From an uncultured Actinomycetes bacterium (lineage in GTDB: Bacteria; Actinomycetota; Coriobacteriia; Coriobacteriales; Atopobiaceae), in assembly GCA_900315165.1 (NCBI GenBank), contig OMXZ01000026.1, positions 1 through 25,434 of the forward strand: DNA of 25,434 nt. The letters are read 5' to 3'. Position numbers and translations under genes: made by a program. A model generated the notes under the pieces. The model was not told where the DNA came from, made no database searches, and was given only the letters and a program-made list of their open reading frames with translations. Of this stretch, positions 12,188 to 22,630 are shown in pieces. Positions within the stretch are counted from its first letter, which is position 1, and every line of letters begins with the position of its first letter.

Positions 12188-13219
12188 CTACGCGCTCGGT
12201 GCCGCGCTCACGTGGATGCCGTCGAGCTTGTTGTCGAACAGCTCCACGATGCCGTACTTGCGGTACTTCATCATGTAGCTGTCCAGGCTCTCCAGCTCGT
12301 CGGGCGAGAATACACGCGACGCCACGTGCTTGTCGAACTTAATAACCGCGCTTTTCTCAACCACCATGAAGTTGATGTCGCGCCCGGCCGCGCTCACTTG
12401 CTCGTAGTAGCCGGAAAGGCCGCTCTTGGTCGGGGAGGCCACGGCGCTGTAGGTGTAGCTGCCCTCGCTGCCGCTGCGCGTGTAGTAGGTCTTCGAGGAA
12501 TCGACCTCGGTGTCGCTCGTCAGCTCGTAGCTCGCCGCGCCCCTCTGGTATCCGAACTGGTCGTCGTCGCCGGAAAGCAGGTCGATGGCCGTGTAGAAGC
12601 GCACCTGCGACACCTCCACGATGCGGCTGAAGCGTTCCAGCACGCGGTTGGAGCGCGTGGGGTTGGCGTAGGAGAAGTCGTCAAGCACGCCCTTGAGCGT
12701 CGGCGTGATGAACAGGATGCGGCTGCCGGTTGACACCTGGCGCTCGTCCATCGTGCTCGTAACGGCGCGCAGGGCGGCAAGCACGTCGGTCGCTGCGGCC
12801 TCGGAGAGGTCTGCTGAATCCACTGTCACGCCCGCATGCGACGCGATCTTGGCGAAGGTGAAGGCGTCTGCCTCAGGTGCCACCTGGGTGCGCTGCAGCT
12901 CGGCTCCCGCCTCCACGAAGCAGTCCAGGACCCCGGCTTCCTCCACGTCCATGACGTCCGCGAACAGGCGGATGCCGCGATCGTAGTTGAAGGTCTTGGT
13001 TTCGAACTCGTAGGTGATGGCTCCGGTCTTGTAGCCCACGTTTCGGGTGTAGTCGCCAAGGCCCGTCACGGACATCTTCGGAATCATGATCTCCTTGGCG
13101 TTGTGCCCGGCCCTCACCATGCGCCGTCCTGAGTTGAGCACGTTGCTCACGCCCGCGCGCTGGTAGACCTCGTCGATGATGGAAGTGTAGTTCTTCGCGA
13201 ATGCGATGCTGTTAGGCAT
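12188..13219 (-). CDS. major capsid protein
   Basis: Length is 343 aa, with AGGAGG 8 nt upstream of the ATG. It follows the scaffold gene and has no TM helices. The call rests on position and composition. Confidence 0.65.
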   Translation of the reverse strand: MPNSIAFAKNYTSIIDEVYQRAGVSNVLNSGRRMVRAGHNAKEIMIPKMSVTGLGDYTRNVGYKTGAITYEFETKTFNYDRGIRLFADVMDVEEAGVLDCFVEAGAELQRTQVAPEADAFTFAKIASHAGVTVDSADLSEAAATDVLAALRAVTSTMDERQVSTGSRILFITPTLKGVLDDFSYANPTRSNRVLERFSRIVEVSQVRFYTAIDLLSGDDDQFGYQRGAASYELTSDTEVDSSKTYYTRSGSEGSYTYSAVASPTKSGLSGYYEQVSAAGRDINFMVVEKSAVIKFDKHVASRVFSPDELESLDSYMMKYRKYGIVELFDNKLDGIHVSAAPSA

Positions 13220-13756: not shown

Positions 13757-13912
13757 GCTGTACCGCCTTTCGTTTCCTTGGACGGCCAACAAGAAGGCAG
13801 CCCACCAACCTGCGATGAGGTTAGCGGGCTGTCACAAGGTGGCTAAGCCAGGTATCGGATAGGCTTTAATTACCGTTTTACAAACGTGTCTGAAATGTTG
13901 CTGATCATTGGG

Positions 13913-15166
13913 CTACTTCCAGACTCGATCATTGTAAGGAGTGGATTCAACCCCTTCGGCCTGCAGGTTTTTAACCATCCGGTCTAGCTTTCCTCGCCAC
14001 ATGGCTTTAAACCAGCGAGTGTCACCGAACCAGCGAACGAGTGTTGGGCTTATAGCATAATATGCCTTGATGAACGCACGGCCACGACGAGTCTCTGCGA
14101 GAGTGTAATCGCGGTAACGTCGAAGCGTCCATACCTGCGGGCAATCATATGAACCGTATACCGCGGTAGCAACATAACAGCCGCCGCTTTGAGGTGTGGG
14201 CCTTTCAGGTATGGTGTAGGTTGGGTCTATTTTCTTGATTGCCTCATGCCATTCCATGATTTTGTCTGTACGCCCCTGTTTGGCAGCAGGAGTGAGTGTA
14301 TATTCATGTACCCATGAACCGCTAGACAAGGTCCACGACCACGAATTGATGAGTTTGTCTTGTACGCCAATCAAATTCTTATATCTGACAACGTCTGCCT
14401 CATCGTCACCATCATCTAGACCAATTGCGACCTCTAGTAGATTAAGGACGCAATCACCACGCTCGATATATTTCTCCCAACTGTACTTCATGGGGTGATC
14501 TTCGCCCCAGAAATCTGGCATGATATGATCGTTCCATGCGTCCATCGCACTATTGTTGATCATTGTGGCGAGCTGTGCATTGATGTCATCTGTAGACGTT
14601 CCACATTTGATTAAGAGTGCAAGCGCGGATGTTTTAACTTCTACTAAGCAAGAAAGAATCGTCGTCGCCTGTTCTTTGTAGCCTGTTTTGCCGAAGTTTC
14701 CACAACACAATCGCATGAGAGCGAGAGACAGCTTGGTTGTCTCCTCGCTTACGGTCTTTTTAACATCTTCAGACTTGTTTTCAGGAGCGTTCTCTACTGC
14801 GTTTGAAAAACAGTTTATCGCCTCGCCTATGCGCAGATTTGCGATGGTCGACTGCCAGCCAGCCGCTTTTCCCTTCAGGAGCCAGGCTTCGTAATTCTTA
14901 TCGTCTACTTCCAGGACCCTGTTGCAGTATTCCTCCGCTTCCTTTTGATTGTCTGCATCGTAGGCTTTTTTAGCTATAGACAGGTAGTTTTTAATTCGGT
15001 CCGACCTATCAACCTTAACGGTTCCAGTAACCTCTACGGTTCCCTCGACCATCATCTTCTTAGCTTCTTCGATCGAATACTTGCAGCCACACGATTGGCA
15101 GACAAACACACCTCCGTCTTTCATAAGGTCTGTGCTTCCGCACATTTCACAGGTCAACTGCTTCAT
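13913..15166 (-). CDS. Zn-ribbon (CEMCGS...CQSCGC) / TPR-like / conserved Cys-containing C-terminal domain (GGCYVATAVYGSYDCPQVWTLRRYRD) protein; last gene of the candidate defence operon
   Basis: Length is 417 aa. The ATG overlaps the upstream TGA as ATGA. GC is low, about 45%. Confidence 0.65.
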   Translation of the reverse strand: MKQLTCEMCGSTDLMKDGGVFVCQSCGCKYSIEEAKKMMVEGTVEVTGTVKVDRSDRIKNYLSIAKKAYDADNQKEAEEYCNRVLEVDDKNYEAWLLKGKAAGWQSTIANLRIGEAINCFSNAVENAPENKSEDVKKTVSEETTKLSLALMRLCCGNFGKTGYKEQATTILSCLVEVKTSALALLIKCGTSTDDINAQLATMINNSAMDAWNDHIMPDFWGEDHPMKYSWEKYIERGDCVLNLLEVAIGLDDGDDEADVVRYKNLIGVQDKLINSWSWTLSSGSWVHEYTLTPAAKQGRTDKIMEWHEAIKKIDPTYTIPERPTPQSGGCYVATAVYGSYDCPQVWTLRRYRDYTLAETRRGRAFIKAYYAISPTLVRWFGDTRWFKAMWRGKLDRMVKNLQAEGVESTPYNDRVWK

Positions 15167-15651
15167 TGATGTCTTCCTTTCTGGTTGTTTGTCTTTCCGA
15201 CTTCCACCTCTCTATAGATGCGATAGATAGAATCCAGGTAGCCTACGGGCATTGCAATATAAGATGTTTGCCCGTATTTCCCGAAATCCCTAAGCTCGGC
15301 GTAAGCTTTTCCGTTTACCATGTAAATCTCTACTTGCCCATGTGCGATTGCATTTCTAACGTGGCGAACGAACTCCTGGCCCTCGGACCCGTCACAAGAG
15401 AAGAGCGCGAAGGGAGTGCGCTTCCTGTTTCTCTTCGTACGAATGACGGGATAGCTATCAGCATTTGTCTTCCTCTTGAAGGTTCTGTCACCAAAACCCT
15501 CCAAGCGTTTCAGCTTCTTTGTAAATCTCCCTTTGCTCACCGCGTCCCAAGGCGTACCCGTAAAACGAGCATCATCAAACAGCCAGTCATAAAGAGCAGG
15601 CGCGTCCTCTAACAGCTTCTTTTCGTCAACCTGCTGGAAGAAAGACCCCAT
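15163..15651 (-). CDS. small HEPN-like protein (Rx4-6H motif RHVRNAIAHG), putative RNase effector
   Basis: Length is 162 aa. The RN..AH motif is characteristic of Abi/HEPN families. It is tightly coupled to both neighbours. Confidence 0.55.
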   Translation of the reverse strand: MGSFFQQVDEKKLLEDAPALYDWLFDDARFTGTPWDAVSKGRFTKKLKRLEGFGDRTFKRKTNADSYPVIRTKRNRKRTPFALFSCDGSEGQEFVRHVRNAIAHGQVEIYMVNGKAYAELRDFGKYGQTSYIAMPVGYLDSIYRIYREVEVGKTNNQKGRHQ

Positions 15652-15652
15652 C

Positions 15653-16321
15653 CTATTTCGACCCCTTTAAGACCATGCTTCTTTCGTCGATTAATCGGGA
15701 AAGCTCTCTCAGGCGATCCACCTCTAGGTCGCTATCAGCTTCAATAGCGCTTATTTGATCGCTGATCATCGCGTCGAGCTCGACAACTGCAGAAGTGCTT
15801 CGCTGGTCAGCAAAGCGCACCTTCTCAATAATCTCGTAAATCAACTTGCCGGATCCGTCGCTTGCGTCTACGGCAACGCTCAGGCGATTCAAACGCAAGA
15901 GCGCATCGCTCATGGCATTCGTTTCGTTCGAGACGTCTTGATCGACCTTGTTCGCATAATCCATGGCCTTGTCAGCGCCGATAGTGCAGGCGCAGCATAC
16001 TGCCAACAGCAGTATGCCGACAATGGCTAAGACAGCGATGCTGTCTGGCGCAATAAGGCAGATTGCCAGTCCGACAACCATTTGAACGACAAGGCATATC
16101 GCGGCGATTGCAAGCCTCGGATATGACCTGAACAGCCCCTCGGCACCAGGCTCGCGACGAGAAAGGCTTACTGCCAGGATCGATGCCTGCAAGACAGCGA
16201 ATAAGAGCGCGAGCCAAGTGGTGGTGTCGCAAACAGTCCCGATGACAAGTACGGCGGTGTACGCCACGACTAGGACCACGATGATGAGTAGTGAGGTGGC
16301 TTTGCCTTTCGCGCTTGCCAT
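15653..16321 (-). CDS. membrane protein with 4 N-terminal TM helices and a C-terminal coiled-coil domain
   Basis: Length is 222 aa. AGGAGG overlaps the SPFH stop codon. Hydrophobic segments are clear in the sequence. Confidence 0.6.
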   Translation of the reverse strand: MASAKGKATSLLIIVVLVVAYTAVLVIGTVCDTTTWLALLFAVLQASILAVSLSRREPGAEGLFRSYPRLAIAAICLVVQMVVGLAICLIAPDSIAVLAIVGILLLAVCCACTIGADKAMDYANKVDQDVSNETNAMSDALLRLNRLSVAVDASDGSGKLIYEIIEKVRFADQRSTSAVVELDAMISDQISAIEADSDLEVDRLRELSRLIDERSMVLKGSK

Positions 16322-16327
16322 ACGTTG

Positions 16328-17464
16328 CTACCTCCTTGTCCCGCATTCAGGGCAGAACTTCTCGGAAGGCTGGAACGGCCTGCCGCATTCGGAGCAGAAC
16401 TTCGCAACGGCGCCTGATGATGGATTTCCTTCCGATTCCGTTGCTTCTGGTTTAGGAACACCGCCTGGGCCAGCCGCTAGGTTAACCGTCCCCATGGCGT
16501 CCGACATCGCGCCGCCGACCATGTTGCCGACCGGCCCGCCAACGCCGGCAATCATGCCGAGGCCGATGCCCATGTTCAAGAATTCCCCGACGCCCTCGTT
16601 TGCAGCTACCTTTTCGGCCACATCGAAACCGCGCTCCTGCTGGTACGTGTAGCCCTCTATGCGACGTTTGTCCGCCGTGGCCGTAGCCTCGATGACCGTC
16701 TTCTTAGCCTCGGTCTCTTGGTTGATGACACCTACCTGCTGTTCGATTTGCGCCTCCCTTACATCGGCATACTGCCGGAAGTAGAGCTCGCGAAAACGCT
16801 CGTATATGGGGTCGCCCTCCGGTCGTATGACGGTGGTCACGAGGAACTGGGTCAGCTCGATGCCATACTCAGCAAAATCGGGACGCAACCGGTCCTTCAC
16901 GTCATCGGACAGCTCGCCAAGATGGGCATCCAGCTCGAATATGCTCAGCTTCTGCTGCTGTATCGCCTGGACCAAAGCGGCTTTGACCCTCGTCTGGAGG
17001 AACGCCTTGAAGTACGCGATCAGTTTGTCTTGGGAGAGAATCGCCTCGGTCCCCACGATCTTGACGAGGAGTTTCTTCGCTTCGCGCACGGCGAGCGCCA
17101 TCTCGCCCGAGACCCCGATGGAGAGGGGGAACCCGAATTCGGGCTCCATATACTGCACTTTGGAATTGGTGCCCCAGGCGATGCCCATCTGCTCCGTGAG
17201 GTTGATGAAGTAGACCTCGGCATGGAACGGCGACACGCCACCACTGGGGAGGTTGACAATCTTGTTCACGAGCGGGAGATTCTGGGTCTCGAGCGTGTGG
17301 CGTCCGGGACCGAACAGGTCGAGAGCCTGTCCGTTCAGGAAGAATATCGCCTCCTGCGACTCATGGACGATGAGCTGGGAAGCGGTGTTGAAGTCCTCGC
17401 TTGGATGCTTCCAGACGAATGTGCGGTTGTCGCCCTCATACTTGATGACGTCTATGATGCTCAT
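16328..17464 (-). CDS. SPFH/Band-7 domain protein with Gly/Met-rich linker and C-terminal double CxxC zinc ribbon (COG4260, B. subtilis YdjI-like)
   Basis: It is trimmed to the ATG at 17464 (MSIIDVIKYEGDNRTFVWKHP...). The 17494 start is a GTG. The N-terminal pattern and the C-terminus KFCSECG...KFCPECG match YdjI-type proteins. Confidence 0.8.
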   Translation of the reverse strand: MSIIDVIKYEGDNRTFVWKHPSEDFNTASQLIVHESQEAIFFLNGQALDLFGPGRHTLETQNLPLVNKIVNLPSGGVSPFHAEVYFINLTEQMGIAWGTNSKVQYMEPEFGFPLSIGVSGEMALAVREAKKLLVKIVGTEAILSQDKLIAYFKAFLQTRVKAALVQAIQQQKLSIFELDAHLGELSDDVKDRLRPDFAEYGIELTQFLVTTVIRPEGDPIYERFRELYFRQYADVREAQIEQQVGVINQETEAKKTVIEATATADKRRIEGYTYQQERGFDVAEKVAANEGVGEFLNMGIGLGMIAGVGGPVGNMVGGAMSDAMGTVNLAAGPGGVPKPEATESEGNPSSGAVAKFCSECGRPFQPSEKFCPECGTRR

Positions 17465-17480
17465 GTAAAGTAGGCCCCCA

Positions 17481-17620
17481 TCGAAAACGTACACGTTTTG
17501 GAGGGGCGAAAAACTTGGTCGGGCAGGGTTGCAGTTGGCCTATTTGCTGGGCATATGCAAAGGTCGCTAGCGTATAATGACCCACTAAGTGACAAAAGCA
17601 AAACGTGTAGTTTTTGGTGC
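17481..17620. promoter_or_regulatory. two about 24-bp imperfect inverted repeats (tcgAAAACGTacACGTTTTggagg at 17481-17504; gcAAAACGTGTAgtttttggtgc at 17598-17620) flanking a roughly 90-bp spacer that carries a perfect TATAAT (17573-17578) on the plus strand and a perfect TTGACA (complement of 17621-17626) on the minus strand
   Basis: Read directly. It lies between the SPFH operon start and the 3' end of the serine invertase gene. It is a candidate for hix-like recombination sites or repressor operators. Confidence 0.3.
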
Positions 17621-17658
17621 TGTCAAATTCTCCGCTTTACCTGCTAAGACGCCATTAT

Positions 17659-18273
17659 TCAGTCATTGCCATCATCGGTGGCATCTTCCTTGAGCCATCG
17701 ATCGAAGGTGCTTGCAGAAACCTTGAGTCGCGTGGCCGCCTCTTGCCTTGTCAGGTGCCCTCCGAGGTAGGATTCCTTCGTGCTCGTATAGCACGCCGGA
17801 CGCTTCTTTTTCGGTCTGCCGAATCGCACACCACGTGCCTGAGCTGCGGCGATGCCCTCCGCCTGCCGCTGCTTGATGTTCTCTCGCTCCATCTGGGCAA
17901 CGTAGGATAACAGTTGCAATACGATGTCCGAGATGAGCACGTTCGTCAGCCCGTCGCGGTGGTTGCGCGTGTCGAGCAGGGGCATGTCGAGAACAACTAT
18001 GGCAGCGCCGCGCTCCTTCGTGAGCAACCTCCACTGCTCCAAAATCTCATCGTAATTGCGCCCGAGTCTGTCGATGCTCTTGATGACGACCACGTCTTCT
18101 GGTCGGAGCGCTCTAAGGAGACGCTGGTATTCGGGACGTGCAAAGTCTTTGCCGCTCGCTTTGTCCATGAACACGTTATCCCGATTGACGCCGAACTCTG
18201 CAAGCGCGTCGAGTTGCCTGTCGAGGTTCTGGTCGCGCGTGGATACACGCGCATAGCCGTATACGCTGCCCAT
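17659..18273 (-). CDS. small serine recombinase, DNA invertase/resolvase type (Hin/Gin/Pin-like) with C-terminal HTH
   Basis: The N-terminus YGYARVSTRDQNLDRQ carries the catalytic Ser. Length is 204 aa, and the C-terminal HTH is RQEAATRLKVSASTFDRWL. Confidence 0.85.
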   Translation of the reverse strand: MGSVYGYARVSTRDQNLDRQLDALAEFGVNRDNVFMDKASGKDFARPEYQRLLRALRPEDVVVIKSIDRLGRNYDEILEQWRLLTKERGAAIVVLDMPLLDTRNHRDGLTNVLISDIVLQLLSYVAQMERENIKQRQAEGIAAAQARGVRFGRPKKKRPACYTSTKESYLGGHLTRQEAATRLKVSASTFDRWLKEDATDDGND

Positions 18274-18496
18274 ATGATTGCCTTTCTGCTAGGTTACCTT
18301 TGTCCAAGAAAGGCGATCAGTTGCAACATCTGGCTGTTTTTCATACCGCTCCATTTGCATCTCGTACCAGCTCCGATGCTGCATTGGCGCATTCCTCGAA
18401 CCTTAGAACTCGCAGCGTAGGCGGTGGTCACAAGCGGGAGTTTTGAAGAGCGGTCACAGCAGTTAATGCCTCTTTGCATGTTGCCGTAAGAGGCTC

Positions 18497-18525
18497 TTGA
18501 CTTCTTACGTGTAACGTCTTACTGT
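18497..18525 (+). promoter_or_regulatory. candidate promoter of the RHH-YfbU gene (TTGACT, 17-nt spacer, TACTGT) with an ACGTGTAACGT motif in the spacer (operator-like)
   Basis: Read directly. The AGGAAGG RBS follows at 18553-18559 and the ATG at 18565. Confidence 0.35.
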
Positions 18526-18564
18526 ATGACACGACAAGTATTGCACATACGAAAGGAAGGCTTC

Positions 18565-19284
18565 ATGCCAACCGTGTCAATCAGAGTAAGCGACGAGCTC
18601 AAGTCTCGGCTCGACACGCTTGCGCAGGAAAGCGAGAGCACGCTGTCGGGTGTCATCGTCGAAGCGCTCAACTCCATTACCGGACTCGGCCGCGAGGACT
18701 ATCCCGAGGAGACGGCGCCCTACACCATCAACAACGCGAACCGACTCATCCTTCGCAACACCGAGCTGCTGCTCGCGCACTGCTCGGACCTTGACGAGGA
18801 CGAGCGCGAGTCCCATGCGAAGAACGTCACAATCCTTGAGGAGGGCTTCACGGGCGAGTATCACCACGTCTTCGCCGCGCTGCGCCCGGAGATTCCCAAC
18901 GCGCGCTGCGACGAGCTCTTCGACATCCTCGACATGTTCCGTGTGCTCAGGGCGTCATACAACAAGCTCCCAGACGACGAAAAGGTGCAGATCGAAGAAC
19001 GCGACATCTCGTTTCGCGGCTTCGACTACAGTGACGACGAGGAGACGGCCCTTCCCGGTTACGTCGAGTACCTGTTCGCCGACGACCGCTACACCGAGCT
19101 CGCCGAACCGCTTTCCCGCTTCTCTGACGGCGGCAACTCTCACCACCGCAACCTCGACATCTACCGCCGGATGCTGCGCTGCTTCAACCAGCTGTGGCGC
19201 AAGCACATCATCAGCTTCGACCTGCTAAGCCTCGACGAGATCAAGCAGGTCGTGTCCGCCGCCCCCTACAATTCCGGCTATTAG
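18565..19284 (+). CDS. fusion protein: N-terminal ribbon-helix-helix (CopG-like) DNA-binding domain plus C-terminal YfbU (UPF0304) family domain
   Basis: It is trimmed to the ATG at 18565 with an AGGAAGG RBS. The N-terminus VSIRVSDELKSRLDTLA has the RHH signature. The C-terminus (NNANRLILRN...ERDISFRGFDYSDDEE...YRRMLRCFNQLW...LSLDEIKQVVSA) appears collinear with E. coli YfbU, which is recalled from memory. Confidence 0.65.
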   Translation: MPTVSIRVSDELKSRLDTLAQESESTLSGVIVEALNSITGLGREDYPEETAPYTINNANRLILRNTELLLAHCSDLDEDERESHAKNVTILEEGFTGEYHHVFAALRPEIPNARCDELFDILDMFRVLRASYNKLPDDEKVQIEERDISFRGFDYSDDEETALPGYVEYLFADDRYTELAEPLSRFSDGGNSHHRNLDIYRRMLRCFNQLWRKHIISFDLLSLDEIKQVVSAAPYNSGY

Positions 19285-19296
19285 GAGGCGATCGAA

Positions 19297-20298
19297 ATGG
19301 CAGGCAACGCCAATCTGGCCCAGGCGAAAGCAGCGCACAAGAGGCCGATGCTCAGCGTGAGCCAGCAGATTGAGCGCCTGAAGGAGAAAGGCCTGACGTA
19401 CGACCTGTGCGACGAGGCCCAGGCTGCCGACATCCTCGCGAAGAAGAACAACTACCTACGCATAACCTCGTACCGAAAGCTATACGAGCGTCAGATGGAA
19501 GGCCCCAACGTCGGCAAGTACGTCAACCTCGATTTCGGCGACCTCGTGGCGATTTCGTCACTCGACAGGCAGCTGCGCGAGGCTTTCCTCACGATGACAA
19601 TCGACGTCGAGCATTTCGCCAAGTTGAAGGTGCTCTCGCAGCTCGAGAAGGAGGGCGAAGACGGCTACGCAATCGTCACGGACTTCTACGCAAGCCTGAA
19701 CCATGCAGGGCGCAACGCCATCCAAGGCGCCATGAAGGTTCGCGGCGGCGAGGGCGAGCGTCACGACGCGTACGCCGGGGACCTCATAGCCCATCACCTG
19801 CAAGACATGCCGGTCTGGGTGTTCCTGGAGGTTATCGACTTCGGGACGTTCGTCGACTTCTACCTGTTCTGCGCAGGCCGATGGCACAACGACGCAATGC
19901 TGCAAGAGCACTACGCGCTCAAGAGCGTCAAGGCGCTGCGAAACGCCACGGCACATAACCATTGCATTCTGAACGGTTTCACGAGGGCCGAGGCACGCGC
20001 AGGGTACACCACGCCGCAAGCCATCACCGACTCGCTGAATGCGGCGGGCATGCCAAGGACGAAGGCCAGGCGCGCCAAGCTCTCCAACCTCCGCATCGCC
20101 CAAATGGCAGCAACCCTGTACTGCCTGAGCACGCTCTGCACGAGCGAGTCCGCCATGGCGCGGCATGCCCGGAGACTCGCCGCGGTCCATGCCGCATACG
20201 AGGCCCATATTGACCGTTACCGCCTGAACAGCTCGTTTGTGTCGTTCTTCGACTTCCTGTTCCGTCTCGTTGACATCTGGGTGCCATGCGGGACATAA
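19297..20298 (+). CDS. abortive infection protein, Abi_2 (AbiD/AbiF-like) HEPN family
   Basis: The N-terminus has the typical motif KRPMLSVSQQIERLKEKGLTYD...NNYLRITSY. The HEPN motif LRNATAHNHCIL is present. Length is 333 aa. Confidence 0.8.
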   Translation: MAGNANLAQAKAAHKRPMLSVSQQIERLKEKGLTYDLCDEAQAADILAKKNNYLRITSYRKLYERQMEGPNVGKYVNLDFGDLVAISSLDRQLREAFLTMTIDVEHFAKLKVLSQLEKEGEDGYAIVTDFYASLNHAGRNAIQGAMKVRGGEGERHDAYAGDLIAHHLQDMPVWVFLEVIDFGTFVDFYLFCAGRWHNDAMLQEHYALKSVKALRNATAHNHCILNGFTRAEARAGYTTPQAITDSLNAAGMPRTKARRAKLSNLRIAQMAATLYCLSTLCTSESAMARHARRLAAVHAAYEAHIDRYRLNSSFVSFFDFLFRLVDIWVPCGT

Positions 20299-20310
20299 TG
20301 GCATCACATG

Positions 20311-20327
20311 AAAAACCTTCGGGTTTG
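20311..20327 (+). terminator. short hairpin with UUCG tetraloop (aaacc ttcg ggttt) 13 nt after the Abi_2 stop
   Basis: Read directly. The U-tract is weak (uuugu). Confidence 0.35.
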
Positions 20328-20602
20328 TAGGGGCGGGGTCGCGCAAGCGGTCTCGCTCCAGTTTTTTGTGCCTCGGTCAGGCTTAATGACCTGAAGAAGC
20401 CGCACGTCAACCATCGCTGCGCGGTAATACGACAAGCAATCCTCACGTTGTCGAATTTATCTATGCCGCCAGTCCTGGCCGCTGGCCCGCGCGCGTGCTG
20501 CCAACCACGGGCTGGGCCGCAGCCCGGCCGCCCGCGCTCCGGGTGTGCGCTCGGGCCGTTCGTGCCGCATGCCGTCCATGGCGCAGGCAAGTCTCCCGTT
20601 AC

Positions 20603-20707
20603 GGCCACAGGGGCAAACGGTGCGCGTCTTCACCACGGCTACGCCAGCCGCTTCGCGTCTGGCTCCGCAGCATCGGGTTCAGCCACGCACCGTTTGCCCC
20701 TGTGGCC
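20603..20707. repeat. perfect 22-bp inverted repeat (ggccacaggggcaaacggtgcg at 20603-20624 / cgcaccgtttgcccctgtggcc at 20686-20707) enclosing a 61-nt loop, inside an about 850-bp GC-rich tract with no convincing ORF
   Basis: Verified base by base. ORFs in this tract are mutually overlapping and have junk-like composition. Confidence 0.6.
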
Positions 20708-21074
20708 TACTGCAGCTCTCACTGATGCGCCATGGCCGCCATGCGTCACGCCCGGCCAGCGGCGCACACCCTACGCGCGGTCGTCCGGTCTGCTGCGTTT
20801 TCCGGCTCGTCCGCACGCACACGGTCCATCGTCCAGGGCGGGCGGCATAGACCTCTCGCCAGCCTCCATGTCCGGCTCCCTTGCCAGCGGCAGCTGCAGC
20901 GACACCCAGGGCACTAGCGGCCGCCAGCGCGTCCCAGACAGCCCCATATGAGGCCGTATCGGACCCGTGACAGCTCCACCAGCCAACGCACGCCACCCCA
21001 AATGCTGCCGAACCTGAAACCCGCTCCTACGGGCTTGCGACGGCCCCGTCAGGCCACCCACTGCGCCAAACATA

Positions 21075-21125
21075 AAGCACCCCGCACGGGAGGCTCCCAG
21101 CCAGCCGTACGGGGTGCTGTGTCGG
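21075..21125 (-). terminator. rho-independent terminator of the portal gene (9-bp stem agcaccccg/cggggtgct with nested GGGAG/CTCCC, followed on the minus strand by TTTATGTTT)
   Basis: Read directly. It lies about 28 nt downstream of the portal stop. Confidence 0.5.
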
Positions 21126-21145
21126 CTCGTGATGCTCTTGCAAAC

Positions 21146-22630
21146 CTATTCGGTGCCATTGCGCATGCCGACGCTCCCGACGCCCACCTCGGAGGCGCGA
21201 GAACGAGCGACGGCCTCCTCTTCTCCGTACCACTTGGCGCGGTACTCCCAGGCAGCCATGGTGACACCAACCTCGCGCATGTCCTGCTCCTTCTCGGCGG
21301 CGGTGTCCTGGATGATGCTGTCGTCATACTGCACGCGCACGGAACCCTCCTCGGGGATCTGCTCGCCGAACCCGCGCGACACTGCCATGACGGCGCGCGC
21401 GATGCCCGCGATGGCCCCCTCCAGGCTGTTCTCATGCCGGCGGATGTTGCGCATCAGGGCCGAATTGTCCGAGCTCACCTCGGTAGCCGTCTTGACGTAC
21501 CCGCGCGAGTCGTCCATGTCGAAGTAGTTGATGCCGAAGCCGGTGAGGTCGCCGAGCATCTGCAGGGCCACGCGGAACGCCTCGATCTGCCCGCTGGTTC
21601 TAAGCGCAGGCGCGAACTCCTGGATGGTGTCCTCCGTGCTCATGACCTTGCGGAAGACGGTGCAGTCCTGCTTGCCGAACGGGATGGTGACGTTCTTATT
21701 CCCGTCCTGCTCGCGGTCGAAAAGGACATCCGACAAGAACACCCTCATCTTGCTCAGGTCGATCTCGTTGATGAGAGCGTCGAAGGTGAGGTCCACGGCC
21801 TGCACCGCATCCACCGCATCCGCGAAGACGCTCTGGCCATAGGGCGACATATCCACGCGAGTGTTTGTGACCGCCGGCTTGACGATGCCGAAGGTGGGGA
21901 AAGGGCAGCCCGTATCATAGATCGGGAGGATGCCCACCGGCGCGAGCTCGTTGCCCTCGTGGTCGAAGCACACGGTGACGATCCTATAGGTCTCCTCGCT
22001 TTCATTGGTGAGAAGACCTTCCGCGCATTCAGGTGAAGGTGTGGAAGGTGAAGAAGAGTCAGGCGAGAAGACCATGCCGCCCTTGAGGTGCATCTGCAGC
22101 TGGTCCACGGCCTTGCCACGGTAGAAGGCACGCGTGACGAAGGCGCATTCGCTGATGCCGTCCTCGTCCCAGCTCAGGGGAATGACCATGCGAGCGTCAT
22201 AGTGGCGGATGCGAACCTTCCTCTTGCCCAGGTCGATCCACAACGCCCAGGCACCGGTGCCGAGCCCGAAGGCACGTACCACGGTGGCCTGCGCCGCGTT
22301 CATGAAGTTCGTGGAAGAGAAGAACGAGTTGATCCAGTCGGTGGCCTTCTGGTTCTCGCAGACGACCTTCACTTACTCGTTGAGGAGAAGGGATCCCCAC
22401 TCCTTGCACACGCGCATAGCCGGGTGAATGCTCCTACGGTGAACCGCATACACGCGCCCCATACCGTCTTTGTCCCTGTAATCGTAGAATTCCCCGCGCG
22501 CGCTCATCCAGTCATCCCACGAGCGGATCCACGGCTCCATGTCATCCAGGGGAAGAACAAACCCGAGCTTGCGCAGATAGTCCTTAACATGCTCCGGCAC
22601 CCAGTATTCGTCGAGACCATTAGCGCCCAT
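21146..22630 (-). pseudogene. phage portal protein gene (SPP1 gp6-like family) interrupted by an in-frame TAA at 22373-22375
   Basis: Track ORFs 22373..22630 (85 aa) and 21146..22372 (408 aa) are in the same frame and separated by a single TAA. Combined length is about 494 aa. The portal-like segment is VKTATEVSSDNSALMRNIRRHENSLEGAIAGIARAV. A strong GGAGGTGACGC RBS lies before 22630. Position between terminase and scaffold fits. Confidence 0.6.

Follow-up and report, generated by a model that had tools for sequence, protein, structure and literature searches.

What does a YfbU (UPF0304) protein do at the head of an operon whose second gene encodes an abortive-infection HEPN protein? The question is raised by a locus in contig OMXZ01000026.1 (assembly GCA_900315165.1), from an uncultured member of the Atopobiaceae; the whole stretch of DNA analyzed, 25,434 nucleotides (nt), is called the window here. 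Gene A of this locus encodes a fusion of a probable N-terminal ribbon-helix-helix (RHH) domain to a YfbU domain (RHH-YfbU) and gene B an AbiD/AbiF-type (Abi_2) HEPN protein, and the locus is a combination of two known abortive-infection (Abi) families. Among relatives, the linkage of YfbU and Abi_2 genes is real and recurrent but facultative. The reading that we favor, with about as much confidence as doubt, is that the A-B pair is a composite anti-phage cassette, carried as defense-hotspot cargo by a Coriobacteriia (pro)phage and traveling with a serine recombinase, in which the RHH-YfbU protein autoregulates the shared promoter and the two modules are separable but cooperate.

Organization of the A-B operon

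The features of the operon, numbered by window position, are as follows.

18497..18535, plus strand: operon promoter region, read from the sequence, with a −35 box TTGACT at 18498-18503, a 17-nt spacer, and a candidate −10 box TACTGT at 18521-18526.
18516-18530, plus strand: operator-like near-palindrome GTCTTACTGTATGAC, flanked by TCTTAC repeats.
18565..19284, plus strand: gene A, RHH-YfbU fusion protein of 239 amino acids (aa), from ATG at 18565 to TAG at 19282-19284; probable RHH at about residues 2-40, low-confidence linker at 41-54, YfbU at 55-232.
19297..20298, plus strand: gene B, AbiD/AbiF-type (Abi_2) HEPN protein of 333 aa, from ATG at 19297 to TAA at 20296-20298.
20311..20368, plus strand: two-hairpin intrinsic terminator found by a terminator scan, AAAACC-TTCG-GGTTT, then GGGGCGGGGTCGCG...CGGTCTCGCTCC, then a T-run.

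The intergenic gap is exactly 12 nt, and the Shine-Dalgarno sequence of B, AGGAGG at 19283-19288, overlaps the stop codon of A. Gene A is itself preceded by the ribosome-binding site AAGGAAGG, 5 nt 5′ of its start at 18565; an alternative in-frame ATG lies at 18526, but all 87 homologues of A that were found start instead at an MPT or MAT that matches position 18565. Both open reading frames (ORFs) are real genes by the domain and fold evidence given below. The terminator scan found no plus-strand terminator between A and B, and the terminator-like hairpin with its T-run at 20330-20368, past B, was the sole plus-strand site in the operon stretch. A first-pass annotation of the window, made from the sequence alone, had described two plus-strand genes 12 bp apart behind one upstream promoter, and the coordinates, the gap, and the single terminator all agree with that description. 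It follows from the sequence that transcription of B, which lacks a separate promoter here, is tied to the promoter of A.

This is the layout of a type II toxin-antitoxin (TA) system: two genes with the candidate antitoxin gene first and 12 nt between them share a single promoter region and a single terminator. The identical A-B pair and island arrangement is found on 23 public contigs of the same phage, and the junction of 11 to 12 nt is kept in three genomic contexts, namely, the phage (23 contigs), the relative L094, and the relative L271, where the pair stands beside a DDE transposase.

The RHH-YfbU protein and the HEPN protein

The first-pass annotation had staked its assignment of the C-terminal domain of A to the YfbU family on a structural search, and both sequence and fold uphold that assignment. 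Residues 55-232 match Pfam YfbU (PF03887) over profile positions 3-166 of 166 (E = 1.4e-34; 120 bits, against a cut-off of 25), and a sequence search of the PDB gave the Escherichia coli YfbU chains 1WPB/4LR3 (E = 1e-10). The AlphaFold2 (AF2) model of A, with a predicted local distance difference test (pLDDT) score of 85, superposes in Foldseek on 1WPB (E = 1.6e-5; template modeling [TM] score normalized to the target, 0.85; root mean square deviation, 2.6 Å over 182 columns) and has the two-domain, all-helical YfbU fold; the same TM score of 0.85 is quoted for 1WPB/4LR3. The score of A against the NCBIfam equivalog of enterobacterial YfbU (NF003936) is 85.6 bits, below the cut-off of 90, and by sequence we class A as a member of the YfbU family and not as an equivalog of enterobacterial YfbU. 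E. coli YfbU shares the fold and 27% identity with A but is the product of a chromosomal core gene and lacks an RHH domain. It also lacks the triplet N191-S192-H193 of A, which is invariant in a clade of YfbU proteins from mobile elements. No homologue of A was found in the INPHARED phage genomes.

The N terminus of A matches RHH_1 (E = 0.023; 15.1 bits, against a cut-off of 20.5) and YlcI_YnfO_N (E = 4.6e-4; 20.2 bits, against 30) below threshold. Its sequence, MPTVSIRVSDELKSRLDTLAQESESTLSGVIVEALNSI, has the canonical strand-helix-helix pattern, and the model begins with an extended stretch followed by helices at 10-22 and 27-39. The N-terminal 43 residues superpose locally on the RHH domain of VapB (5x3t; probability 0.95, E = 3). 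Homologues of A have weak matches to PF21983 or PF01402 at the N terminus, and one from Xanthomonas matches RHH_1 with an E value of 0.0012. Of the fusion proposed at first pass, the YfbU half is thus secure by profile (1.4e-34) and fold, whereas the RHH half is suggested by profile matches below threshold and by the local match to VapB. This RHH-YfbU architecture is undescribed in the literature searched.

YfbU proteins have been connected with phage defense and with toxins before. Kamadhenu, a 180-aa YfbU-only protein encoded by the Lactococcus plasmid pUCCL624, is an abortive-infection system when cloned alone (Grafakou et al. 2024, PMC11381338). Like A, it is a YfbU protein on a mobile element, with an Abi phenotype, and on its own plasmid it is co-localized with other defense systems; its description sets it apart as a single-gene, YfbU-only system, whereas A has a probable RHH domain added at its N terminus and is encoded by the first gene of an operon whose second gene encodes a HEPN protein. 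Phages that escape Kamadhenu carry a change at G22 of a Sak-like single-strand annealing protein (SSAP), and the same position gives escape from the HEPN protein AbiJ (PMC12184496). A study in E. coli reported yfbU to be one of the “death genes,” required for the killing that depends on the RNase toxin MazF after DNA damage (PMC2646832), which is an earlier link of YfbU to an RNase toxin pathway, although its role is disputed.

As the first-pass annotation had proposed, the product of gene B is AbiD/AbiF-like. It matches Pfam Abi_2 (PF07751; E = 2.2e-21; 77.5 bits, against a cut-off of 25.6), PADLOC AbiD (7.9e-21), and phrog_2158, “abortive infection resistance protein” (2.9e-33). The HEPN motif reads R215-N-A-T-A-H220, and R215, N216, A217, and H220 are invariant in 23 homologues. 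The AF2 model (pLDDT 89) has as its best and only significant PDB match 8VZ6_A, “PbAbiF dimer bound to ncRNA” (E = 3.5e-4; probability, 1.0; TM scores, 0.58/0.64). B is accordingly a member of the Abi_2/AbiD-AbiF HEPN family, and its model has the AbiF fold.

AbiD/F systems are type III TA systems, in which a HEPN toxin related to the ancestor of Cas13 is paired with an upstream noncoding RNA (ncRNA) antitoxin that contains abiF motifs (PMC12373285, PMC13064643). The background supplied at first pass treated YfbU as a family of unknown biochemical function and AbiD/F proteins as HEPN effectors; it left out both these RNA antitoxins (PMC12373285, PMC13064643) and Kamadhenu (PMC11381338). B resembles AbiF, AbiD, and AbiD1 (PbAbiF, 8VZ6; Clostridioides difficile AbiF-RCd22, PMC12373285) in its Abi_2 domain, HEPN R-x4-H motif, and AbiF fold, and it is prophage-borne like C. 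difficile abiF. In contrast, where those systems have an ncRNA with abiF motifs 5′ of the toxin gene, B has an RHH-YfbU gene 12 nt upstream and no such RNA that we could detect. No Rfam family reached its gathering score anywhere in the window, the abiF motif was absent from 17500-21200 even at E ≤ 10, and neither it nor another Rfam RNA was found in 26 loci of B homologues. The noncoding DNA directly 5′ of B amounts to 12 nt only. There may still be an RNA antitoxin of a kind outside Rfam. A conserved upstream ncRNA for the close homologues of B was considered and rejected: the upstream regions fail to align across the clade, and the standalone genes have their own promoter and a short leader.

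The terminator past B is itself conserved. An element of about 60 nt with two hairpins (AAAACCTTCGGGTTT and GGGCGGGG...CTCGCTC plus a T-run) is 79 to 96% identical behind B-type Abi_2 genes whose proteins are 50 to 70% identical, and it sits past the Abi_2 genes of L100, L108, and L111-L117. It also occurs elsewhere in Coriobacteriia loci (L024/L026 and, on the other strand, L116). The element may be no more than a widely used terminator, or its RNA may serve the toxin in some way.

Promoter and candidate operator

The proposed operon promoter, which fails a strict sigma-70 consensus scan, contains a direct repeat (ACTTCTTAC/ACGTCTTAC). Within the 70 nt 5′ of A homologues (53 to 94% identity), the TTGAC −35 box is conserved, and overlapping the −10 box is a near-palindrome, GT(C/A)(A/T)TAC(A/T)GTA(A/T)GAC, with ACAGTAA half-sites repeated. 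This GTCATACAGTAAGAC-type near-palindrome is kept along with the TTGAC box over that whole range of identity, and GTCTTACTGTATGAC in the window is its reverse-complement version. Because the repeats GT(C/A)ATACAGTAA(G/T)AC / ACAGTAA are conserved 5′ of A homologues with or without a following Abi_2 gene, the operator-like element belongs to A. Its form is the one expected of the operator of an RHH autorepressor, and the RHH domain would be the part of A that binds it. An invertible promoter or segment driven by the neighboring invertase was also considered and rejected, as neither the promoter nor the operon is bordered by convincing inverted repeats.

Recurrence of the YfbU-Abi_2 pairing

When YfbU homologues were grouped at 80% identity into 26 clusters, an Abi_2-like HEPN gene was found within 6 kb of a YfbU-family gene in 9 of the 26. 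It is the immediate neighbor of YfbU at seven loci in seven clusters (the window lineage, pCG4, pVAPN1572, pCdoos1, L044, L057, and L083). Saunier et al. found abiF/abi_2 in 7,828 of 46,864 genomes, mostly in one or two copies (PMC12373285), so the proximity of YfbU and Abi_2 is far above the naive genome-wide expectation, which is an expectation not matched to defense-island loci.

Two loci show the pair of the window outside the phage. In L094, nucleotide identity of 91% extends over window positions 16331-19994 up to a breakpoint that truncates the Abi_2 gene, beside chromosomal genes; genes for an SPFH protein, a resolvase, YfbU, and Abi_2 have moved together. In L271, A is 92% and B 86% identical, and the junction is 11 nt.

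At larger distances, the Corynebacterium glutamicum plasmid pCG4 carries a divergent recombinase gene, a YfbU family protein gene, and an Abi family protein gene, and this order mirrors the window though the A proteins are 36% identical. The pCG4 Abi protein matches Pfam Abi_2 (E = 1.4e-7) and PADLOC PD-T4-5 (7.9e-16), and a hidden Markov model (HMM) iterated from it found the same short (220 to 270 aa) HEPN family in several placements near YfbU.

Directly downstream of YfbU: L044 and Prescottella equi pVAPN1572, with a remnant in L057.
Directly upstream of YfbU: Corynebacterium doosanense pCdoos1.
Past an intervening recombinase gene: Mycobacterium abscessus pGD25-2 / L068.
Convergent with YfbU, 50 nt to 2 kb off: L067, L070, L075, L076, and Rhizobium L083.
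About 4 kb off: L061/62 and L074.

We had at one stage taken the pairing as unique to the lineage of the window, and this idea was dropped once the divergent short Abi_2/PD-T4-5-like family had been recognized through the pCG4 annotation and the iterated HMM. The Abi_2 genes on the Corynebacterium, Prescottella, and Mycobacterium plasmids form a PD-T4-5-like clade distinct from the B clade. PD-T4-5 is a single-gene Abi_2 system in PADLOC, and the short Abi_2 proteins beside RHH-YfbU on actinobacterial plasmids match it (7.9e-16 and 2.5e-11), whereas B belongs to a longer, AbiD-like clade that the HMM of the short family does not match. An HMM of B homologues, whose result had first suggested that uniqueness, found no B-type Abi_2 in 74 species-level loci seeded from RHH-YfbU. 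The geometry of the actinobacterial loci is also looser, with YfbU and Abi_2 150 to 270 nt apart, convergent, or separated by other genes.

Both modules also occur alone. No YfbU gene was found within 4 kb of B homologues (25 to 56% identity) in 127 metagenomic or viral loci. Homologues of B at 68 to 74% identity stand by themselves, with their own promoter and a leader of about 25 nt, and L273 is a natural A-less cassette, where the Abi_2 gene (69% identity) and a divergently oriented SPFH...resolvase segment have no YfbU gene between them. An 82%-identical RHH-YfbU gene is found alone in a chromosomal context (L095-99, without B), a Collinsella clade of RHH-YfbU genes (60% identity) is mostly solitary, and most loci seeded from A have no Abi_2 gene nearby. 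The recurrence predicted at first pass was found in part, in 9 of the 26 clusters and at seven loci as immediate neighbors; neither the loci seeded from B (0 of 127) nor most loci of A share in it. The literature searched contains neither a link of YfbU to HEPN or Abi_2 proteins nor a description of an RHH-YfbU fusion, and the single paper in it that mentions both YfbU and HEPN does not connect the two; within it, the first-pass view of the pairing as new stands, and the association of YfbU, Abi_2, and serine recombinases is undescribed.

In several Mycolicibacterium loci (L061-L063, L067, L070, L075, L076, and L078), a repeated element of about 250 nt lies between YfbU and the nearby Abi_2-like gene. 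It reads in frame “MRNQISTQWVLIEAIQADDVLFDQDSQSS...” and probably represents a mobile or repetitive element, of small size, by which the pair was disrupted or its genes were moved apart. A cluster of “Abi-like” ORFs of about 95 aa past mycobacterial YfbU genes was discarded as an artefact of a repeated element translated in frame.

Other partners, plasmids, and recombinases

YfbU often heads a tight two-gene unit with a variable second gene. Overlaps of −4 with unrelated proteins of 177 to 350 aa occur in Gordonia, Dietzia, Nocardioides, and Rhodococcus, and L079 too has a −4 overlap; other second genes encode a NYN-domain protein (L046), weakly DUF3800-like proteins, an overlapping 160-aa protein in Photobacterium, and, 6 nt past YfbU on 145 Enterococcus plasmids, a 170-aa protein. 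Pfam and PADLOC searches of these tightly coupled downstream partners gave weak DUF3800 matches and one NYN match only. The Enterococcus unit, seen at 26158-28089 of Enterococcus faecium pVVEswe-S4 (L244) and on 144 other Enterococcus plasmids, comprises a YfbU-only gene, the 170-aa gene, and a serine recombinase gene, all three bracketed by IS1216 copies; it is widespread on clinical plasmids, adjoining resistance genes. In Atopobiaceae and Collinsella (L001-L004, L005/L006, and L013-L021), RHH-YfbU is followed within 12 to 44 nt by a conserved protein of 93 to 114 aa, and in L001-L004 (6737-7819) a 260-aa protein with a HELTH (zincin-like, HExxH) motif comes after the 95-aa partner. The 93- to 114-aa and HExxH proteins are an alternative partner set for RHH-YfbU.

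Plasmids frequently carry YfbU-family genes, both with and without RHH (198 to 222 PLSDB records). Such genes adjoin ParA/Rep/res regions of small plasmids, and YfbU is the sole accessory gene on plasmids of 3.4 kb and 5.4 kb; on one of these two, the remaining genes are just those for a tyrosine recombinase and a putative Rep protein. A serine recombinase gene lies within about 450 nt of YfbU in the window lineage, in L048/49, L061-64, L066, L068/69, and L072, on pCG4, and on plasmids of Rhodococcus ruber, Mycobacterium intracellulare, M. abscessus, Mycobacterium farcinogenes, and Enterococcus; mycobacterial loci with this arrangement number about a dozen. Such a gene also stands directly 5′ of B homologues in L111-113 and L273.

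Phage context and defense hotspot

The window is the head-morphogenesis region of a siphovirus-like prophage with a backbone GC content of 65 to 74%. Between the portal and scaffold genes, the backbone is interrupted by an island of about 7 kb with a GC content of 47 to 60%. The backbone genes and the remaining island genes, all on the minus strand, are as follows.

12188-13219, minus strand: major head protein, phage backbone.
13238-13792, minus strand: scaffold protein, phage backbone.
13913..17494, minus strand: rest of the low-GC cargo island, encoding a 417-aa tetratricopeptide repeat (TPR)-like protein, proteins of 162 and 222 aa without assignment, and an SPFH/band-7 protein with a zinc ribbon.
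16328-17494, minus strand: SPFH/band-7 protein (Pfam Band_7_1, 1.9e-40) with a C-terminal zinc ribbon.
17659..18273, minus strand: small serine recombinase (resolvase/invertase; Pfam Resolvase, 1.6e-34; phrog_125 DNA invertase), divergent from A-B.
21146-22372, minus strand: portal protein, phage backbone.
23651-24940, minus strand: large terminase, phage backbone.

The portal-scaffold gap (13900-21146 in the window; past the portal in L249-L267) is a variable defense hotspot of 7 to 10 kb in this phage family. Relatives whose portals are 77 to 94% identical hold different cargo in the same slot, including type II, type IIG, and type III restriction-modification systems, an HKD and Snf2 protein, Ppl, and MzaB. 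As the slot holds interchangeable defense cargo in the relatives, the island occupies a defense hotspot, and this position independently supports the view that the genes of the island act against phages.

The SPFH/zinc-ribbon protein recurs beside the resolvase/(YfbU)/Abi_2 cassette (L094 and L273) and near another RHH-YfbU gene in L006. Together with the proteins of 222, 162, and 417 aa (TPR-like), it suggests a further co-traveling, possibly defense-related module. At 20460-20851, a GC-rich nested inverted repeat of about 390 nt, which may be read on either strand, occupies the stretch from 295 to 686 nt past the 3′ end of the gene for the portal protein. Its predicted fold is a single long hairpin (−280 kcal/mol; z = −12.8 versus shuffles); it is 73 to 76% identical beside the portal gene in related phages with different hotspot cargo, and has changes on both sides in 35 of 139 pairs of a five-sequence alignment; it has no Rfam match. 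This hairpin may act as RNA, in structured form, or as DNA, in which case the palindrome would mark the boundary of the hotspot. In the portal ORF itself, the match to the PHROG portal profile does not begin until profile position 89 of 495, and related contigs have an 85-aa gene called directly 5′ of the portal gene; the N terminus of the portal protein may be split or its start misplaced.

Interpretation of the pairing

If A-B is a composite anti-phage cassette, B would be an AbiF/AbiD-type HEPN RNase whose activity arrests or kills the infected cell. A would be a YfbU protein of the mobile-element type, with the domain of Kamadhenu, that gained an N-terminal RHH DNA-binding domain and may have a Kamadhenu-like potential of its own. 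B, which sits 12 nt past A, would have lost its own promoter in this lineage and be transcribed from that of A. The RHH domain would most likely bind the conserved near-palindrome as an autorepressor, and the RHH-YfbU protein would thereby control how much of itself and of the HEPN toxin is made, and might make that amount depend on infection. The two proteins might cooperate as a regulator or sensor with its effector or as two layers of abortive infection, and the whole unit would move with the serine recombinase into defense hotspots. The modules are separable because each is found alone, whereas their repeated co-localization suggests cooperation and not a strict toxin-antitoxin pair. The role given here to A is reminiscent of that of the WYL-type repressors BrxR and CapW, which combine a DNA-binding domain with a putative sensor domain and are encoded by the first gene of a defense operon; like them, A would repress its own promoter, although it has no sequence or fold relationship to either.

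Several points weigh against this reading. The RHH assignment, with its profile matches below threshold and local fold match, is the weakest element, and the conservation attributed to the operator could be promoter conservation alone. The AbiF/AbiD toxins that have been characterized need an RNA antitoxin and none is detectable here, which leaves the restraint on B unexplained and makes a direct protein antitoxin role for A possible. Abi_2 and YfbU genes in the loci were detected by home-built HMMs on six-frame ORFs, and part of the enrichment may come from the general clustering of defense genes on mobile or resolvase-borne cassettes.

An unlikely alternative is a type II-like TA or Abi pair in which the YfbU domain binds and inhibits the B RNase while the RHH domain represses the operon, the protein thus replacing the RNA antitoxin of type III AbiF systems. 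As in type II systems with RHH antitoxins (VapBC, CcdAB, ParDE, and RHH/MNT-HEPN), an upstream gene, here with a probable RHH domain, is separated by a short gap from a downstream nuclease-type gene, and a palindromic operator-like element lies in the single promoter. The fold of B is that of PbAbiF, which as a toxin requires an antitoxin (PMC13064643), and with no abiF motif and no room for an upstream ncRNA, inhibition by A would explain how B is restrained. Proximity of YfbU recurs with two distinct Abi_2 clades, and a tight, variable second gene after YfbU is the pattern of a promiscuous antitoxin domain. However, the C-terminal part of A is a well-folded YfbU domain of 180 residues with Abi activity elsewhere, which departs from those antitoxins, and a YfbU protein alone is an active Abi system (PMC11381338). 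The partners are also not consistently co-inherited as those of a type II system are: none of the 127 B loci has YfbU, L273 lacks A, and L095-99 lack B. B-type Abi_2 genes at 25 to 74% identity are never beside YfbU and have their own promoters and leaders, while L273 keeps the SPFH, resolvase, and Abi_2 genes; the 82%-identical RHH-YfbU gene and the Collinsella clade are solitary; and the actinobacterial Abi_2-like gene may be 150 to 270 nt off, convergent, upstream, or past a recombinase gene. The same observations (the solitary 82%-identical A, 0 of 127, L273, and the loose actinobacterial geometry) speak against A as an antitoxin-like obligate partner of B, and an antitoxin role for A is neither shown nor favored. 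The first-pass interpretation, in which YfbU domains may be modulators, sensors, or antitoxins of HEPN toxins, is supported in part.

It is similarly improbable that two independent single-gene systems, a Kamadhenu-like YfbU and an AbiD/F-like HEPN protein, are simply stacked in one transcription unit, through the accumulation of defense genes in hotspots and on resolvase-associated cassettes, so that their adjacency has no mechanistic meaning. Both families have been published as acting without a protein partner, both are common alone, the site is a phage defense hotspot with interchangeable cargo, and serine recombinases flank each family independently. Against stacking, no separate promoter serves B here, and the 11- to 12-nt junction has been kept in three contexts. 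The association moreover reappears at phyla-level distances and involves two Abi_2 clades; it is far more common than the per-genome frequency of Abi_2 would predict, in a comparison with genomes at large and not with a matched set of defense-island loci. The idea that RHH-YfbU is a maintenance or recombination accessory of the neighboring recombinase or mobile element (a resolution or inversion regulator or a stability factor), with Abi_2 as unrelated cargo, has in its favor that YfbU adjoins a recombinase gene no less often than an Abi_2 gene and that it lies beside ParA/Rep/res regions and is the sole accessory gene on the 3.4-kb and 5.4-kb plasmids, yet it is very unlikely given the anti-phage phenotype of the Kamadhenu gene cloned alone (PMC11381338), the many YfbU loci without any recombinase, and the lack of inverted repeats suggesting an invertible segment at the promoter or operon.

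The composite cassette with a shared, autoregulated promoter thus remains the reading that we favor. A broader and doubtful proposal gives YfbU, bare or fused to RHH, the role of a promiscuous partner in two-gene systems on mobile elements that are immune or TA-like; the domain would sense a phage cue and control or neutralize interchangeable effectors and, in the window, act as a protein stand-in for the AbiF RNA antitoxin. The effectors would include the two clades of Abi_2 HEPN RNases, a NYN nuclease, DUF3800-like proteins, the HExxH protein, and several proteins without assignment. The cue would perhaps be SSAP-dependent recombination intermediates, as hinted by the escape mutants of Kamadhenu.

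Implications for YfbU and AbiF biology

Crystal structures of YfbU (UPF0304) have been available since 2004, but the family has no known biochemical function, and the only functional leads are the disputed MazF-dependent death and Kamadhenu. The present locus and its relatives add clues: YfbU is widespread mobile cargo, often fused to RHH and with a conserved operator, it stands repeatedly beside Abi_2-type HEPN RNases and serine recombinases, and it often heads tight two-gene units with a variable second gene. If the role of promiscuous partner were true, it would give a biochemical role to this long-orphan fold. For AbiF/AbiD biology, the locus offers a natural AbiF-fold toxin that has no recognizable RNA antitoxin and lies under the promoter of a protein-coding partner. 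If A regulates or neutralizes B, two Abi families would be linked, which would suggest how HEPN toxins switch between RNA-based and protein-based control; if it does not, the locus would be a clean example of defense-gene stacking in a newly delineated phage hotspot.

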